NCBI GenBank assembly: GCA_902777205.1 | Contig: CACYSU010000011.1 | Location: 6,910-70,909 of the forward strand | Direction of reading: 5' to 3' | DNA: 64,000 nt | Origin: an uncultured Rhodospirillales bacterium | GTDB taxonomy: Bacteria; Pseudomonadota; Alphaproteobacteria; CAAGCB01; CAG-977 | Shown here: piece by piece, positions 3,728 to 7,982 of the stretch | How positions within the stretch are numbered: the stretch's first letter is position 1 | How the letters are laid out: every line of letters starts with the position of its first letter | Made by a program: the position numbers and the translations under genes | Notes under the pieces: generated by a model | Seen by the model: the letters and a program-made list of their open reading frames with translations, nothing else | Databases searched by the model: none | What the model was told of the DNA's origin: nothing

Positions 3728-5461
3728 ATGGTAAAAAGATTTTTAACGGCGGCGATGGTATTCGCCTTAATTTTTGCGACCTTGCCGGCCGCGCGGGCGG
3801 GTGTGTTCGACGATGCCTGTTCGTTCCAACTGGCCAAAGCGGTTAAATTGGGACGCGGCGCGACGGTCACGTCCGGCATAGCGGGACAGATCGGCGGTAA
3901 AGCGGAAATGTCCACGGAAAGGGAATGTGATCCGAACTGCGAAAACTGCGACAAAAAAACGGGCGAATGCCTGCGGTGCAAGGAAAACTATTACCTGTAC
4001 GACAACGCGTGCCACGATTGCCCGCAATACGCCAAATGCGACGGAACGCCCGCTTTCACCTGCCCCGTTCCCGAATATTTCAAAGAGGGCTTCTTGTGCC
4101 ATAAATGCGCGGATCTGATCCCGCATTGCGTCGCTTGCGTCAATGAAACGAAATGCACGGCGTGCGAAGCGCCCTACGTCCTGTCCGACGACGGCACCGC
4201 GTGTGTCGAACCGCCCACCTGCGCCGGCACGGTCGCCAAGGATGAAACGGTCGCTATGGCGACGGATGCGGCCACGTTCGCCGAAGCGGTGAAATCGTCC
4301 AAAAACGTGATTTTCATCGCCAACGACATTTCCGGCGTGGCGACGACGGATTTGGGATCGAAAAAACTGGTCGGCCCGAAATATTTTTCCGACATCGCCA
4401 TGTGCAAAACCGAAGCAACCCCGACCCTCGGATTTGGCGGATCGTCGAATTTGACCATGGCGGGCGGATCAATTGAACAACTGTCCGTATCGTTTGCCAC
4501 GCCTGATGTCAACGCGATTTCAGGTTCAGGAACGATCAACAACGCGACGATCACATCCGGAAAAACAAAAAACGTCATCTCCGCATCCGGAAAAATGACG
4601 TTATCCGGATCGACGAAAATCGTTTCATCGGATGAAAACACATCATCGACTTTACGTACGACAGAAGCTTCTGATACGTTTGAAATTACAAACGGCTCAA
4701 CTTCTTTTGACGGAAATGTCAGCACCGTGGCTTATATTAACGAAGGTACTTTATCCATCACGTCTTCAGGAACCTTTGTTTCTAATGCTAAAGCTTACAA
4801 CGTTGTTTATTTGTACGGCGGCAAACTGATTGCCAACGGCCCGATAAAAACATACAGTGTAGCAACTTACGCATTACAACAATGGGGAGTTCATGCAAAA
4901 ACGAAACCGTCCATGACTTTGAACGCGTCGGGAAACGTGCTGACCTCTTATTACGACGGCTTTTACGCCACGGACGGCTCAATCACAGTCAACGGTTCCA
5001 CGACAATTAATTTCGTCCCTAATCCGAATCCATCCGATGGCAGTGCAAAAACAGGCTTTGATATGCACGAAGTGTACTCCAACAGTGTTATAGCCCTGAA
5101 CATCAACGCTCCGATCACAATCACGGGATTGACGAAAAGACATGACGATAAATACCCGTCCAGCACGGGCGATGAAATTCTGCATATGATTGGCGGAAAT
5201 CTGCAAATCAATGGGGAGATCAACAACAAATCAGGCATCGGCAAAGTCTTCATCAATGGCGAACCGCAGGGAATGTCCGGCAAAGGTGCTATCTTGGGCG
5301 TCAGCTATATGTACGGCTACGACAGACCTTTCAATGTTTCCGCCGGCGCGCGGTTGCAAATCGGCGGCGTCTGCAAAAAGGCGGCCACATCCGGATCAAT
5401 GAAGCTTTCTTATGACAATGGCATTAAAGCACCGATTGCGCCGTTCAACAGCGGTTGCTGA
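3728..5461 (+). CDS. Secreted cysteine-rich protein. Signal peptide, then CxxC-rich furin/EGF-like repeats, then a low-GC Thr/Ser/Asn-rich beta-solenoid-like C-terminal region.
   Basis: RBS AAGGAGGG 8 nt upstream of the ATG. Signal peptide MVKRFLTAAMVFALIFATLPAARA. Segment ECDPNCENCDKKTGECLRCKENYYLYDNACHDC is paralogous to the N-terminus of the 6420..7982 product. GC content drops from about nt 4440. Confidence 0.75.
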   Translation: MVKRFLTAAMVFALIFATLPAARAGVFDDACSFQLAKAVKLGRGATVTSGIAGQIGGKAEMSTERECDPNCENCDKKTGECLRCKENYYLYDNACHDCPQYAKCDGTPAFTCPVPEYFKEGFLCHKCADLIPHCVACVNETKCTACEAPYVLSDDGTACVEPPTCAGTVAKDETVAMATDAATFAEAVKSSKNVIFIANDISGVATTDLGSKKLVGPKYFSDIAMCKTEATPTLGFGGSSNLTMAGGSIEQLSVSFATPDVNAISGSGTINNATITSGKTKNVISASGKMTLSGSTKIVSSDENTSSTLRTTEASDTFEITNGSTSFDGNVSTVAYINEGTLSITSSGTFVSNAKAYNVVYLYGGKLIANGPIKTYSVATYALQQWGVHAKTKPSMTLNASGNVLTSYYDGFYATDGSITVNGSTTINFVPNPNPSDGSAKTGFDMHEVYSNSVIALNINAPITITGLTKRHDDKYPSSTGDEILHMIGGNLQINGEINNKSGIGKVFINGEPQGMSGKGAILGVSYMYGYDRPFNVSAGARLQIGGVCKKAATSGSMKLSYDNGIKAPIAPFNSGC

Positions 5462-5485
5462 TCGGCCGTCATAAACGATTGCGCG

Positions 5486-5521
5486 CCGCGGGGGATTTGA
5501 TTTCCCCCGCGGTGTTTTTTT
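5486..5521 (+). terminator. Rho-independent terminator.
   Basis: CCGCGGGGGA...TCCCCCGCGG stem followed by T8. Confidence 0.6.
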
Positions 5522-5591
5522 GCGCCGAAAGGAATGGATTTTCGACAAAAAATTTGCCATAATAATTCCGCTTTAAAACAGGACGCTTTCC

Positions 5592-6326
5592 ATGACGGCA
5601 AAACGAAACAACGACCGATACAGAATCACGCTTTATCTGGACACGCCGAAACCAATGATGAATCCGTTTCGCGACCCGCTGAAACACAGCCAGCTGGCCA
5701 GCCTGTTCAGCGGAAACGGTTTCGATGTCGCCGCCGTGACCGGTCACGCCTATATCGGATTGGCCGAAAATCCGATGAACGAGGAACGCTGGGGCTACGG
5801 CCCCGAATCCGCCAATCCCGTCAAACTGATCCGCGGCGTTCCGGGGGCTTTGGTGGAACACGAGGGATGCGATCCCTATAACGAAGCGATCACATGGAAT
5901 ATTTCCGAAAAACAATATCTGGCCGCGAAAAAAGCCGTCGAGGATTTGCAAAAAGATCCGGGGGAATATAAGCTGTTTGAAAAAAACTGCGCGACGGTCG
6001 CCTGTCAGATTTTGCAGGCGGCGAACGTTCCCGACCTGCCGACGGGAAAAACAGCCCTGACGCCGTTCGGGTTGGTGTTGAAAAAGCGTTTGATGCTGGC
6101 CAAACGGCGTATTGAAATGCTGAAATTCAAAACAAAAAACGCCGTCAACGCCCTGTTCGGCCGCAAAAAGGCGCCCTCGTCCAAGCTGTTGGAAACGTTC
6201 CGTTCCAAACCGATGCCCGTATCCCTGAACATCGGTACGCGCGCCAGCCACGTTGATGCCGCCGTCGGAAAAACGCGTCCGCCCGACATTGACCGCATTC
6301 TGCATAATTTGACGCAATCGCGATAA
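5592..6326 (+). CDS. Hypothetical protein with a permuted papain-fold-like arrangement (His in TGHAYIGL before Cys in EKNCATVACQ), LRAT/PPPDE/NlpC-P60-like. Possible hydrolase or acyltransferase effector.
   Basis: The His...Cys order and the NC motif resemble permuted NlpC/P60 superfamily members. There is no signal peptide. Confidence 0.4.
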   Translation: MTAKRNNDRYRITLYLDTPKPMMNPFRDPLKHSQLASLFSGNGFDVAAVTGHAYIGLAENPMNEERWGYGPESANPVKLIRGVPGALVEHEGCDPYNEAITWNISEKQYLAAKKAVEDLQKDPGEYKLFEKNCATVACQILQAANVPDLPTGKTALTPFGLVLKKRLMLAKRRIEMLKFKTKNAVNALFGRKKAPSSKLLETFRSKPMPVSLNIGTRASHVDAAVGKTRPPDIDRILHNLTQSR

Positions 6327-6419
6327 CGCGCCTCGCCCGTCCGGTTGATTTTCTGTACACGCTTTACCGCCTTTATGCTATCTTTAAAACCGTTGATTCG
6401 GATTTAAGGAGATATACGC

Positions 6420-7982
6420 ATGAATCCCCTTTCCCTTATGAAACGGGTTTTGCTGTGCGGCGGAATTGTCGCGCTGATCGCAACGATCGCCGGAACGGGC
6501 GAACCGGCCGGCGCGCAGGAACCGGAAAACGGATCGCCCGATTTCACCGGCCGAGGGGCGATGATCGCCGCGATAAAAGAATGCGATCCGGACTGTATCG
6601 CCTGCGACGCGCAAACCGGTTCGTGCACCCAATGCGCCGCCGGATTTTTCCTGCTGGGCAACCGGTGCTATTCCTGTTCCGAATCCATTAACAACTGCCA
6701 GCTTTGCTATAACGCAACCACCTGCACGAAATGCGAACCGCCCGCGTTGATGACCCCCGACGGCCAATGCAAAATCTGCACCTGCACCGACGGGACGCGG
6801 TGCAACCCGTACACGGTTCAATGCGACATCTGCTTTTCCGGCGAAAAATGCGGATGCCCCGGCGAAATGGTGTCGGACGGTTCCGGCGGATGCAAAGACG
6901 GATGTACGCTGACGCCGGTCAGTTGCGTCGGCATCAACGGCGGCCGCGAATCCGACTGGCGCATCGAAAAAACGGAAAACGGATGCGAATGCGCGACGGA
7001 TAACAAATACATCCTGCTGTTCGACCAACATCCGGATATAAAACATTCGCCCGAAAAATACCATCGCGTCAAAGCGGTCAGGGATTTCGGCGGCATCACG
7101 GCCGGAACATTGGGCGGATACATTCAAAGCGAAGCCAACCTGTCGCAAACCGGCAATGCTTGGGTCGGATGCGACGACACGGGCTGCGCGATCGTCGGCG
7201 ACGACGCGCGGGTTTACGACAACGCGTTGGTTTCCGGCGGCGGATCAACGGATTTCAGCGGCAATCCGGACGAATACGGCGGCGCGACGCGCGTGATGAA
7301 CGACGCGCAAGTCTTCGGCAACGCCAAAGTGCTGCGCGGGTCGTACATCTATGCGGGCAAAGTCTATGGCAACGCCACGTTCCACGGCGCGGAAGTCTAT
7401 CCGGACACACCATGGAAACCGGCCGTCCCCGGATACGCGGTGTCGCGCTTGACCATCGCGGGCGAAGTGTTCGGCGACGCGCACATTTACGCGGGCGGAT
7501 CGGTCGGCGGTTCCGGCGGCGTCAGCTCTGTCAACAATCCCAAAGTTTACGGCAGCGCCATCGTCGCCGGCGGCGACGGGGACAGATTTTGTCTGGCGCG
7601 CGTAACGCATTTGGGCGAGGTTTATGAAAACGCCAAAATCTTGCGGTGCAGTGAAATCAGCGGCGGCAAAGTCCACGGCAACGCGATCATCCGCAACCGT
7701 CTGTTCGGCGTCGGCGGCCGCGCGGAAATTTACGGCAACGCGATCGTCGAAGGCACCGCCGTCGTCGAAGGCAACGCCAAAATGTACGGCAACGCCCTGC
7801 TGTCGCCGGCGGAAAGCACCGACGGCGTGATTCCCTACCTGTGCGGCAAAGCCGTTTTGGCGGGCAACGCCAAAATAACCGCCGCGACGGGGGAAAAGAA
7901 CTCGGTCTGCAAAGGCACCTATAAAAAAGGGACGATCAACTGGCAGGAAAGCTATTGCTCGTCCAAAAACTGCCCGCAATAG
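6420..7982 (+). CDS. Secreted cysteine-rich protein. Signal peptide, then CxxC-rich furin/EGF-like module, then about nine periodic (V/I)(Y/F/H)GNAx(V/I) repeats suggesting a beta-helix.
   Basis: RBS AAGGAG before the ATG. Hydrophobic N-terminus. ECDPDCIACDAQTGSCTQCAAGFFLLGNRCYSC is paralogous to the 3728..5461 product. Repeats include VYGNATF, VFGNAKV, IYGNAIV and MYGNALL. Confidence 0.75.
   Translation: MNPLSLMKRVLLCGGIVALIATIAGTGEPAGAQEPENGSPDFTGRGAMIAAIKECDPDCIACDAQTGSCTQCAAGFFLLGNRCYSCSESINNCQLCYNATTCTKCEPPALMTPDGQCKICTCTDGTRCNPYTVQCDICFSGEKCGCPGEMVSDGSGGCKDGCTLTPVSCVGINGGRESDWRIEKTENGCECATDNKYILLFDQHPDIKHSPEKYHRVKAVRDFGGITAGTLGGYIQSEANLSQTGNAWVGCDDTGCAIVGDDARVYDNALVSGGGSTDFSGNPDEYGGATRVMNDAQVFGNAKVLRGSYIYAGKVYGNATFHGAEVYPDTPWKPAVPGYAVSRLTIAGEVFGDAHIYAGGSVGGSGGVSSVNNPKVYGSAIVAGGDGDRFCLARVTHLGEVYENAKILRCSEISGGKVHGNAIIRNRLFGVGGRAEIYGNAIVEGTAVVEGNAKMYGNALLSPAESTDGVIPYLCGKAVLAGNAKITAATGEKNSVCKGTYKKGTINWQESYCSSKNCPQ

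Follow-up and report, generated by a model that had tools for sequence, protein, structure and literature searches.

Predicted Sec-exported proteins joining furin-like heads to beta-solenoids in a gut alphaproteobacterium

The locus and its gene products

What might two neighbouring genes, whose products each place a cysteine-rich head before a repeat-built C-terminal domain, do for an uncultured alphaproteobacterium of the animal gut? The genes, here ORF A and ORF B, lie in a 64,000-nucleotide stretch of DNA, hereafter the window (Table 1). Both open reading frames had been described by a sequence-only reading of this DNA; they were recovered in the ORF list and are under purifying selection relative to same-species and sister-species copies (dN/dS 0.04-0.5, including 0.14-0.37 for ORF A against L005 and 0.11 for ORF B against L024). 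The strong ribosome binding sites it had named precede both start codons, and the Cys-rich peptide strings it had quoted were found in both proteins.

The locus is chromosomal, adjoins lysS and lies among housekeeping genes in several species. No phage genes were found near it, and no secretion system was found in the 64-kb window. Effector-like DUF6782 proteins with polyproline repeats are encoded in the neighbourhood. The gene between ORF A and ORF B, which has no signal peptide, is syntenic with A-type genes across several species (synteny and duplications at L005, L007, L008, L010 and L011). Its product gave a weak match to Lnb_N (E=0.004) and no match in PDB, NCBIfam, PADLOC or PHROG.

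Table 1. Features of the ORF A/ORF B locus, numbered from the first position of the window.
Feature	Position	Strand	Description	Basis
ORF A	3728..5461	+	577 aa; signal peptide, motif-bearing tether, two furin-like repeats, right-handed beta-helix (predicted)	ORF list
ORF B	6420..7982	+	520 aa; signal peptide, tether without motif core, Cys-rich rod, YdcK-type solenoid (predicted)	ORF list
Shine-Dalgarno AAGGAGG, ORF A	3716..3722	+	5 nt 5' of ATG	read from sequence
Shine-Dalgarno AAGGAG, ORF B	6406..6411	+	8 nt 5' of ATG	read from sequence
Terminator-like hairpin 3' of ORF A	5483..5515	+	13-bp stem, 10 GC pairs, T-run	consensus scan
Terminator-like hairpin 3' of ORF B	8219..8243	+		consensus scan
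Gene between ORF A and ORF B	5592..6326	+	244 aa; His...Cys pair GHAYIGL / EKNCATV	
Sec-type signal peptide of ORF A	3728..3799	+	aa 1-24; MVKR, hydrophobic core, ARA/G	sequence features and hydropathy
Linear motif SFQLAKAVKLGRG of ORF A	3821..3859	+	aa 32-44, within disordered tether aa 25-61	
Cys-rich rod of ORF A	3911..4237	+	aa 62-170; two predicted furin-like repeats and linker Cys165; 17 Cys at 67-165	
C-terminal domain of ORF A	4238..5458	+	aa 171-577; predicted right-handed parallel beta-helix; N-cap motif LGSKKLVGPKYF; end PFNSGC	
Allelic cassette in ORF A beta-helix	4427..4988	+	about aa 234-421; replaced in other same-species strains	
Cys-rich region of ORF B	6582..6992	+	aa 55-191; predicted furin-like repeats aa 55-117, then more small Cys-rich units	
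YdcK-family domain of ORF B	7005..7979	+	aa 196-520; N-terminal 'RVKAVRDFGGITAGTLGGYIQ' element and about 11 hexapeptide-type repeats; 8 Cys	

Judged by sequence features and hydropathy, both products appear to be Sec-exported, modular proteins. Each N-terminus has a basic n-region and a 12-residue hydrophobic core (Kyte-Doolittle 2.6 and 2.8), followed by an A-x-A site (ARA/G in ORF A, AGA/Q in ORF B); the signal peptides proposed earlier are thus supported, and with such leaders neither protein is predicted to be cytoplasmic. Hydropathy revealed no TM-like segment outside the signal peptide. Neither protein has a lipobox, an autotransporter barrel or a sorting tag at its C-terminus, and no anchor or device for export across the outer membrane could be identified in them; a Sec leader by itself predicts the periplasm only.

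Behind its signal peptide ORF A carries the motif SFxLAKAVKLGR, in a segment of very low model confidence (residues 1-61, pLDDT <50 in the AF2 model). The extended family motif reads (N/D)-D-x-x-S-F-x-(I/L)-A-K-A-V-K-L-G-R. In 122 distinct 18-mers from the retrieved proteins, starting at median residue 33, A-K-x-x-K-L-G-R is near-invariant (conservation: F 89%, A 94%, K 99%, L 93%, G 98%, R 82%). The motif is present in at least 75 of 143 newly retrieved clusters (clustering at 50% identity) and occurs in relatives of the A type, the B type and the all-Cys-rich type. It is the hallmark of a large family, so far without annotation, that includes ORF A and ORF B, and all named sources of the retrieved proteins are gut Alphaproteobacteria MAGs. 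The motif core is deleted in ORF B, so the localisation of the two proteins may differ if the motif is needed for it.

Cysteine-rich rods and beta-solenoids

The heads are best described as predicted furin-like repeats. The head profile matched Fu1-Fu2 of R-spondin-1 and R-spondin-2 in PDB (best E=1.3e-5, R-spondin-1, profile positions 2-98), and Foldseek with the ORF A AlphaFold model, which displays a furin-like repeat fold followed by a right-handed beta-helix, returned RSPO Fu1-Fu2 at probability ~1.0 (E=0.03, 20-28% identity). The HMMER alignment has high composition bias, and the match is largely the Cys framework. The Furin-like_2 match of the window proteins (E=0.18) falls under the Pfam threshold; relatives clear the Pfam cutoffs of Ephrin_rec_like (29.6 against 23.1) and VSP (33.5 against 31.4). 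A furin/EGF-like module was what the sequence-only reading had proposed. Its count of >20 Cys in each module is right for ORF B (24 in residues 55-191, with 7 CxxC and 3 CxC) and too high for ORF A, which has 17 in the rod, 21 in the whole protein and 6 CxxC. The Cys columns of the ORF A rod are invariant. ORF A has 16 rod Cys plus invariant Cys165, Cys226, Cys549 and Cys577, and mature ORF B has 32 Cys; this parity fits full disulfide pairing, and we infer that disulfides form in both proteins.

The proposed paralogy applies to the heads (BLASTP E=9e-12, 29% identity over ~100 columns) and not to the full length, since the C-terminal domains, already said to differ, are unrelated. Head type varies by lineage (furin-like, EGF-like 'CDPNPCSSGYC' or ephrin-receptor-like) and the leader and C-terminal domains remain orthologous; in one A-type protein, P0017, the head is absent. 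For this reason the rod is read as a probable protease-resistant spacer, not a specific ligand. An exhaustive profile search also gave long multi-repeat, Cys-rich proteins of up to 1,837 aa, protist-like by composition alone, which suggests that the head repeat is generic.

In the AF2 model of ORF A (mean pLDDT 86.6), the C-terminal domain, mostly above 90 and with regular short strands, is confidently predicted to be a right-handed beta-helix of ~400 residues, of an undescribed family. Its fold neighbours are all right-handed beta-helices: PL6 lyases (best match 8bwk, E=0.011), IFTase, rhamnogalacturonase, GH87, pectate-lyase-superfamily proteins and tailspikes, none with an E below 0.011. 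The earlier wording, a pectate-lyase- or passenger-like beta-solenoid, therefore stands as regards the fold, and "passenger-like" denotes fold resemblance only. The domain had no sequence match in Pfam, NCBIfam, PHROG or PDB, and none of 24 ORF A homologues has a Pfam domain. Its conserved residues are mostly Gly, Asn and Thr, together with Cys226, Cys549, Cys577 and a C-terminal Cys staple (GGVCKKA...PFxSGC); it has no conserved acidic cluster and no recognisable catalytic residues.

The C-terminal domain of ORF B, also read earlier as a solenoid, is by its family matches a YdcK-type beta-solenoid. The alignment to YdcK 27-318 (PDB 2f9c, E=2.7e-8) covers ORF B residues 215-487. NCBIfam YdcK_fam was matched at E=5.1e-15 (55 bits, equivalog cutoff 350), PF18836 at 23.8 bits (cutoff 30) and phrog_7964 at 5.6e-44; residues 183-384 matched phrog_7964 and phrog_5070 at ~1e-43. 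The nine (V/I)(Y/F)GNAx(V/I) repeats counted earlier were not reproduced: the strict pattern has 2 sites and a loosened one 11, against a mean of 0.013 (maximum 1) in the shuffled domain. The autocorrelation of hydrophobicity is highest at lag 6 (0.32), a hexapeptide rhythm. The AF2 model is of moderate confidence (mean pLDDT 69.8) and its solenoid fold matches are weak (E of 0.011 or more). A Cys-rich head is present in 19 close homologues. A literature search for YdcK found no functional study, and the domain gives no functional lead because YdcK and its phage relatives are of unknown function.

Cassette exchange and the probable site of action

The centre of the ORF A helix differs between strains. 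In blastn against L024 the cassette region had no similarity and its flanks were 95-98% identical; against L025 the gap spans 4427-5167. In the centre dN is 0.8 and dS is saturated, whereas dS is 0.02-0.09 over residues 1-233; it is also raised in the C-terminal part (0.40 for L024, 1.12 for L025). As dN/dS is <1 wherever measurable, the signal in the centre comes from replacement of the cassette and does not demonstrate positive selection. Paralogues of the A type and the B type exchange their N-terminal cassette (P0012/P0028, 92% over 102 aa); in a single contig, L009, the shared DNA is 93% identical over 94 nt. The sequence-only reading had noted neither this exchange, nor the allelic cassette in the helix, nor the conserved N-terminal motif. 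Both the swapped helix centre and the common N-terminal cassette make the evolution of ORF A resemble that of exposed proteins. Some prepilin-type proteins (TIGR02532 above cutoff) also bear related heads, and the central domain of one flagellin matches A profile positions 170-306 (E=3e-10).

We lean towards reading ORF A and ORF B as Sec-exported, disulfide-bonded modular proteins, adhesin- or spike-like on a disulfide stalk, which the cell would either hold on its surface or release; they would then pass beyond the periplasm. Surface or secreted adhesin-like proteins are also what the sequence-only reading had suggested. The shared plan would run from a cleavable signal peptide through a disordered tether of ~35 residues and a rigid furin-like, spacer-like rod to a beta-solenoid working end, the beta-helix in ORF A and the YdcK-type hexapeptide solenoid in ORF B. 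The solenoid faces may serve as binding surfaces, possibly acting on polysaccharide, and the N-terminal motif may dock the protein to an envelope partner or an export route.

A less probable alternative keeps both proteins in the periplasm, where the ORF A beta-helix, and perhaps the ORF B solenoid, would act on or bind the cell's own envelope polysaccharide or peptidoglycan, and the rod, its disulfides made by the machinery of the periplasm, would serve for stability only. The Sec leader is the only export feature, the best fold neighbours of ORF A are polysaccharide lyases and hydrolases, periplasmic alginate epimerases and lyases offer a beta-helix model, and the setting beside lysS is a housekeeping one. 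However, ORF A matches no lyase or hydrolase family in sequence and has no conserved acidic cluster, strain-level helix-centre replacement and N-terminal cassette shuffling would be unusual in a housekeeping periplasmic enzyme, and prepilin-type proteins, which bear related heads, are extracellular.

It is improbable that the proteins are secreted host mimics, with a head imitating R-spondin, EGF or ephrin-type modules that engages a host receptor (e.g. LGR, ZNRF3) and a solenoid as carrier. Among solved structures the head is indeed closest to the R-spondin module that binds LGR4/5 and ZNRF3/RNF43, the organism inhabits the animal gut, and effector-like genes lie nearby; but the low R-spondin identity is largely Cys framework, the repeat is generic, and replacement or loss of the head in proteins that keep the rest argues against a specific receptor-binding head. 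That the proteins derive from receptor-binding proteins of a phage or tailocin, as leftovers or as domesticated pieces, is very improbable: the tailspike-like fold of ORF A (which has no PHROG match), the PHROG matches of ORF B with relatives in 58 phage records, and a modular exchange resembling tail-fibre mosaicism are set against Sec signal peptides and many Cys, unlike virion proteins assembled in the cytoplasm, a syntenic chromosomal locus with no phage genes close by, and phage relatives of ORF B that are short and annotated as hypothetical or acyltransferase, not tail proteins.

Comparison with known systems

Like the FU repeats of R-spondin Fu1-Fu2, the window heads have the framework C-x3-C-x2-C-x6-C-x2-C-x10-C and consist of two consecutive repeats of ~45-50 residues. 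Unlike R-spondin, Giardia VSP and ephrin-receptor-like (GCC2_GCC3) repeats, they belong to bacterial, predicted Sec-exported proteins; they differ from Giardia VSP in having no TM segment or CRGKA tail, and from animal FU repeats in being fused to beta-solenoids, with a bacterial N-terminal motif ahead.

ORF B shares the R-V-K-A-V-x-D-F...G-G-Y-I element and VYGNA-type coils with the YdcK family (Salmonella YdcK, PDB 2f9c/2pig; PF18836; NF040481). Small size, the lack of a signal peptide and an apparently cytoplasmic location characterise canonical YdcK and its phage relatives, whereas ORF B is predicted to be exported, is joined to a Cys-rich rod and has 8 Cys in the YdcK-type domain. For residues 171-577 of ORF A the predicted fold, short strands piled into a long stack, is that of the pectate-lyase superfamily (PL6 alginate lyases, GH28, phage tailspikes, autotransporter passengers), but this domain has no sequence-level relationship to any family and no trimerisation or tail-attachment domain, and it possesses its own conserved N-cap and Cys staple.

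Like mosaic surface proteins such as flagellin, tail fibres and polymorphic adhesins, ORF A has conserved flanks around a central cassette that is non-homologous between same-species strains, N-terminal modules are common to paralogues in the A/B family, and the central domain of the flagellin mentioned above is related to the ORF A N-cap region. The family differs from them in having no known assembly or secretion pathway attached, and the likeness is one of evolutionary pattern, not homology. Each part of ORF A and ORF B has a known fold; what is new is the way the parts are combined, together with the motif.

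Gene structure and the cysteine-rich head

The genes for the two exported-type proteins, ORF A and ORF B, are listed in the table together with the other features of the window. As the sequence-only reading had it, both have strong RBSs, and a signal peptide is predicted on each from a classical Sec layout at the N-terminus. The leader of A consists of MVKR, a hydrophobic core and ARA/G, and that of B of MNPLSLMKR, a core and AGA/Q; the 12-residue hydropathy maxima are 2.6 and 2.8, respectively. Judged from these features, both proteins probably carry a Sec-type export signal. 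Hydropathy gave no further TM-like segment in A or B. Because both are under purifying selection (dN/dS 0.04-0.5), we consider ORF A and ORF B real genes. A second terminator-like hairpin was found downstream of B by the consensus scan. No extra copies of either head (the Cys-rich N-terminal module) or of either C-terminal domain were found elsewhere in the window.

Features of the window discussed in the text
Feature	Position	Strand	Description and basis
415-aa gene	260..1507	+	between helicase and lysS
Shine-Dalgarno of ORF A		+	AAGGAGG, 5 nt 5' of ATG; read from sequence
ORF A	3728..5461	+	577 aa; ORF list
Terminator hairpin	5483-5515	+	strong, own to A; consensus scan
244-aa gene	5592..6326	+	His...Cys pair GHAYIGL / EKNCATVACQ; basic C-terminal tail; no signal peptide
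Shine-Dalgarno of ORF B		+	AAGGAG, 8 nt 5' of ATG; read from sequence
ORF B	6420..7982	+	520 aa; ORF list
DUF6782 gene	8599..12423	-	putative metallopeptidase
Polyproline repeat	8783-9171		in the 1274-aa DUF6782 gene; TRF period 45 nt, 8.4 copies
DUF6782 gene	12564..14690	-	putative metallopeptidase
DUF6782 gene	20019..22928	-	putative metallopeptidase
Four-gene cluster	52233..55952	+	last genes: LPP20-like lipoprotein, LpoB-domain protein
KAP-family P-loop NTPase gene	56131..58581	+	low-GC island (42-47%)
Adenosine deaminase gene	58578..60887	+	low-GC island (42-47%)

A and B had been described as paralogues with more than 20 Cys in each head. The heads are homologous (BLASTP E=9e-12, 29% identity), but the C-terminal domains are unrelated, and the count holds for B (24 Cys within residues 55-191, 33 overall) but not for A (17 within residues 67-165, 21 overall). 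There are six CxxC in A, and seven CxxC and three CxC in B. A shows the canonical Cys spacing of FU repeats of ~45-50 residues, with Cys 67, 71, 74, 81, 84, 95, 98 and 104 in repeat 1 and Cys 112, 124, 127, 134, 137, 143, 146 and 159 in repeat 2, and the Cys columns are invariant across heads. To these 16 are added the invariant Cys165, Cys226, Cys549 and Cys577, a parity that would fit full disulfide pairing.

The furin-like nature proposed for the head was borne out by a profile of 12 heads, which matched R-spondin-1 (E=1.3e-5) and R-spondin-2 (E=2e-3) in the PDB. The alignment covers both Fu1 and Fu2 with the Cys columns in register, a match that counts as moderate rather than strong given its high composition bias. 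Searched with Foldseek, the AlphaFold model of A (mean pLDDT 86.6; rod, i.e. the head region, 84-90) returned the same R-spondin Fu1-Fu2 chains (probability ~1.0, E ~0.03, rmsd 7-8 A, 20-28% identity). No Pfam or NCBIfam model reached threshold on full-length A or B. Furin-like_2 (PF15913) gave E=0.18 and 12.5 bits with the A head, under the cutoff of 28, and E=0.014 at best among the 12 heads. Single heads had sub-threshold matches to VSP, Furin-like_2, Ephrin_rec_like and TNFR-like models; VSP matched 7 of the 12 (best E=5e-5), the window proteins being under the cutoff, and longer relatives exceed the Pfam cutoffs for Ephrin_rec_like and VSP. From the R-spondin profile and Foldseek matches, together with the family-level Pfam matches, we therefore conclude that the head of A and B is most likely a pair of furin-like repeats, to which B adds more small Cys-rich units.

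Furin-like or ephrin-receptor-like Cys-rich regions related to these heads also occur in prepilin-type metagenomic proteins (P0304, P0315, P0260 and P0312). In P0304 and P0315 the N-terminal methylation motif is above the TIGR02532/PF07963 cutoffs.

Two unrelated predicted beta-solenoids

Residues 171-577 of A were modelled by AlphaFold as a long stack of short strands, mostly at pLDDT >90. The fold neighbours are all right-handed parallel beta-helices, every match having E >= 0.011: PL6 alginate lyases, inulin fructotransferase, rhamnogalacturonase, GH87, and phage pectate-lyase-superfamily and tailspike proteins. These weak matches agree with the pectate-lyase-like solenoid suspected earlier and make it the probable fold. 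Full-length A had no match in Pfam, NCBIfam, PHROGs or PADLOC, and residues 171-577 had no sequence relatives in Pfam (PbH1, Beta_helix and Pectate_lyase_3 included), NCBIfam, PHROGs or the PDB. Against the PDB, phmmer with A gave one chance-level sulfatase match (E=0.38), and the full A-family profile found only factor X EGF modules, in the head region (E ~1e-3), and nothing for the beta-helix. The conserved columns of the helix are mainly Gly, Asn and Thr, with no catalytic signature found; an N-cap motif, LGSKKLVGPKYF, and a C-terminal GGVCKKA...PF(N/T)SGC are conserved. The helix of A is a new sequence family.

Segments of this helix were met in two other settings. The metagenomic flagellin P0279 (532 aa), with Flagellin_N and Flagellin_C both above threshold, has a variable centre (residues 113-259) similar to the N-cap region of the helix, matching the A-family profile at positions 170-306 (E=3e-10). 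In the giant protein P0183 (7545 aa), A-profile positions ~438-523 are matched 128 times over, in separate stretches (summed E=1e-41), so that one coil segment of the helix recurs elsewhere as a tandem unit.

For B, nine (V/I)(Y/F)GNAx(V/I) repeats had been reported. The strict pattern occurs at 2 sites and a loosened one at 11, against ~0.01 in shuffles; the solenoid has a lag-6 periodicity. Residues 215-487 match residues 27-318 of YdcK (PDB 2f9c; E=2.7e-8), and the homology spans both the N-terminal element and the solenoid. Scores against the family models are E=5.1e-15 and 55.2 bits for NF040481, far from its equivalog cutoff of 350, and 23.8 bits for PF18836 (cutoff 30). Across Pfam, NCBIfam, PHROGs and PADLOC, full-length B gave just these sub-threshold YdcK matches and PHROG families with no assigned function. 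Confidence in the B model is only moderate (pLDDT 69.8), and a fold search with it, in which YdcK took ranks 2-4, was uninformative (best E=0.22). By its family-model scores, B 196-520 is a distant member of the YdcK family or a domain relative of it, not an equivalog. No function of YdcK is reported in the literature searched. Relatives of the B domain are common in phages (phrog_7964 at 5.6e-44, 58 phage records); they are short and annotated as hypothetical or acyltransferase, with 0 tail-protein annotations among the matches listed.

N-terminal motif and exchange of cassettes

After its signal peptide A has the motif F-D-D-A-C-S-F-Q-L-A-K-A-V-K-L-G-R-G, with the core S-F-x-(I/L)-A-K-A-V-K-L-G-R at aa 32-43. 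Exhaustive searching with the A family in HMMER brought up 287 matches at E<=1e-3. Of the 143 representatives that were new (one for each cluster at 50% identity), at least 75 combine a signal peptide with the motif and a Cys-rich region. The common plan, to which A conforms, places the motif within ~20-65 residues of the start, between the signal peptide and the Cys-rich region. In 122 distinct variants, with a median motif start at residue 33, the logo reads (N/D)-D-x-x-S-F(89%)-x-(I/L)-A(94%)-(K/R)-A-V-K(99%)-L(93%)-G(98%)-R(82%)-G. It is not covered by any Pfam or NCBIfam model. Since pLDDT is <50 throughout residues 1-61 of A, the motif is probably a short element in a flexible tether.

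In other species the motif begins nearly all A-type proteins (those with the A beta-helix) and most B-type proteins (those with a YdcK-type C-terminal domain). It likewise begins a third class, proteins of 80-635 residues that are Cys-rich nearly throughout (8-14% Cys). The clusters with the motif, at least 75, are otherwise very unlike, and their named sources are all gut Alphaproteobacteria MAGs. Within the window ORF A alone bears the motif: the core is missing from B and from the two proteins closest to it, apparently because 8 residues were deleted ('SPDF--------TGRG' in B), and the B orthologues P0027-P0038 keep it. On another contig (L022, 4457..5104, +), a 215-aa Cys-rich gene ('CTQCPENGTCNGTGITCNSGY') lies 13 nt upstream of P0165, an all-Cys-rich gene of the motif family, so that members of this family stand in tandem at other loci too. 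The gene 5' of P0165 is unrelated to the 244-aa gene.

The first 102 residues of the A-type protein P0012 and the B-type protein P0028 are 92% identical, and P0021 and P0042 are 87% identical over the N-terminal stretch; P0012 and P0021 share only 40-53% identity with A of the window over the same stretch. In contig L009, an A-type gene and the B-type gene next to it have 93% DNA identity in their 5' head regions, over the 94 nt available. N-terminal cassettes have been exchanged between A-type and B-type paralogues. The head type also varies by lineage, being furin-like in the window and EGF-like or ephrin-receptor-like elsewhere, and one A-type protein is entirely without a head. Recent gene conversion of the 5' ends in the window was rejected, as A and B share no DNA repeat there and the repeat occurs only in L009, from another species; the heads of the window genome are anciently diverged.

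A second kind of exchange affects the helix of A. In two contigs of the same species (L024 and L025), the flanks of its centre have 92-98% DNA identity, whereas window positions 4427-4988 (4427-5167 for L025) have no detectable nucleotide similarity. Protein identity falls from 100% to 10-47% over residues 241-420 and then recovers towards the C-terminus. dS is 0.02-0.09 for residues 1-233 and saturated in the centre, and it is raised in the C-terminal part too (0.40 for L024, 1.12 for L025). In its middle, the A beta-helix carries an allelic cassette that is replaced between strains. Positive selection was not seen by dN/dS, which showed just purifying selection and the one saturated, replaced cassette.

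Locus, proposed role and comparison with known systems

The window is ordinary chromosome, with class I lysyl-tRNA synthetase, gatCAB, the nuo operon, yidC and rnpA. Among species-representative genomes, relatives of A occur solely in uncultured gut MAGs labelled Alphaproteobacteria, Rhodospirillaceae or Rhodospirillales, e.g. UBA6324 (81% identity), UMGS1296 and HGM16793. The order lysS-A-244-aa gene-B is also found in other strains and in sister species, some species having a B-type gene in the place of A. Synteny of the 244-aa gene with A-type genes extends to at least five species, and duplications of it are frequent. Its product, with a weak Lnb_N/DUF4105 match (E=0.004), may be a His/Cys enzyme, possibly papain/LRAT-like; it looks like this rather than an immunity protein. 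We also rejected the idea that A, B and the 244-aa gene form a polymorphic-toxin/immunity set, since both C-terminal domains are large conserved solenoids and not toxin domains.

Around lysS the whole region acts as a variable island. The pair of large DUF6782 genes 3' of B, missing from other strains, is a strain-variable insertion. There are five DUF6782 genes in the window, and the motif-family gene P0241 likewise adjoins one. The 1274-aa DUF6782 protein has no signal peptide and ends in ~8-9 tandem 'VMPPPPPP(P)RTTTxxT' units, polyproline repeats that look effector-like. The 415-aa gene is strain-variable as well; in its place other strains have 486-aa and 337-aa proteins (L024, 237..2799), and all three proteins have weak FG-GAP matches only. 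Farther along, the deaminase of the low-GC island matches PADLOC RdrB (E=1.7e-30), and with the KAP NTPase, an ATPase with no RdrA match, it looks like a RADAR-like anti-phage pair. The four-gene cluster may encode an envelope lipoprotein complex; its LPP20-like match falls just short (25.4 bits, cutoff 25.9), and its LpoB-domain protein (E=5e-21) has a weak CsgG match (E=0.008).

These results establish a common plan: a predicted signal peptide, a tether that may or may not bear the motif, a Cys-rich rod with putative disulfides, and a predicted beta-solenoid. Because head types are interchangeable and one paralogue has lost the head, the rod would serve as scaffold or spacer and not as a specific ligand, and the conserved, orthologous solenoids would then be the functional ends. 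Replacement of the helix cassette and N-terminal shuffling, related heads on prepilin-type proteins and the A-like segment in a flagellin centre point to an exposed location; cassette exchange of this kind is typical of exposed structures. We lean towards an envelope-displayed or secreted binding protein, in which the motif in the tether would serve as a docking or sorting element, the Cys-rich rod as a protease-resistant stalk and the solenoid as the binding end.

The main rival, which we think less likely, is a periplasmic location, because nothing in A, B or the window accounts for passage across the outer membrane. Host-ligand mimicry through the R-spondin-like head is improbable, since swapping of the heads weakens it. 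A phage or tailocin origin is very improbable in view of the Sec leaders, the cysteines and the chromosomal synteny.

A tentative reading, which we would not call probable, is that the motif is a new sorting or anchoring signal, read by dedicated putative machinery that moves disulfide-rich proteins across the outer membrane or fixes them to it. Such a signal would define a new way in which a Gram-negative lineage displays disulfide-rich proteins and would be a simple sequence handle for listing the surface proteome of this lineage in metagenomes; the lineage would have its own recombining repertoire of surface proteins made of eukaryote-type modules. If the tag has no such role, the annotation of furin-like repeats and a YdcK-type solenoid outside the cytoplasm and of a new beta-helix family is still useful. 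The family is large and unannotated, with exported members that combine eukaryote-type Cys modules and beta-solenoids behind a common N-terminal tag. Gut Alphaproteobacteria of this type are uncultured, and the family may offer a defined entry to their interactions with host, phages and neighbouring cells.

Three known classes of exported or surface protein do not accommodate A and B. Both are without the barrel domain of an autotransporter or any other barrel, A ending in the helix with PFNSGC and B in SSKNCPQ, and without the lipobox of a lipoprotein (VLLC is not one). Unlike Giardia VSP-type proteins they have no C-terminal hydrophobic segment, and an assignment as VSP was rejected for want of a C-terminal TM segment and CRGKA tail. 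This family did not turn up in literature searches on YdcK, bacterial furin-like repeats, RF32 gut Alphaproteobacteria and prokaryotic VSP-like proteins. Four things are new to the libraries and literature searched: the combination of modules, the exported YdcK-type domain, the family marked by the N-terminal motif, and the way cassettes are exchanged and replaced. The modules themselves have known counterparts in FU repeats, the YdcK solenoid and the pectate-lyase-like beta-helix fold; the window proteins miss the curated thresholds for all three.
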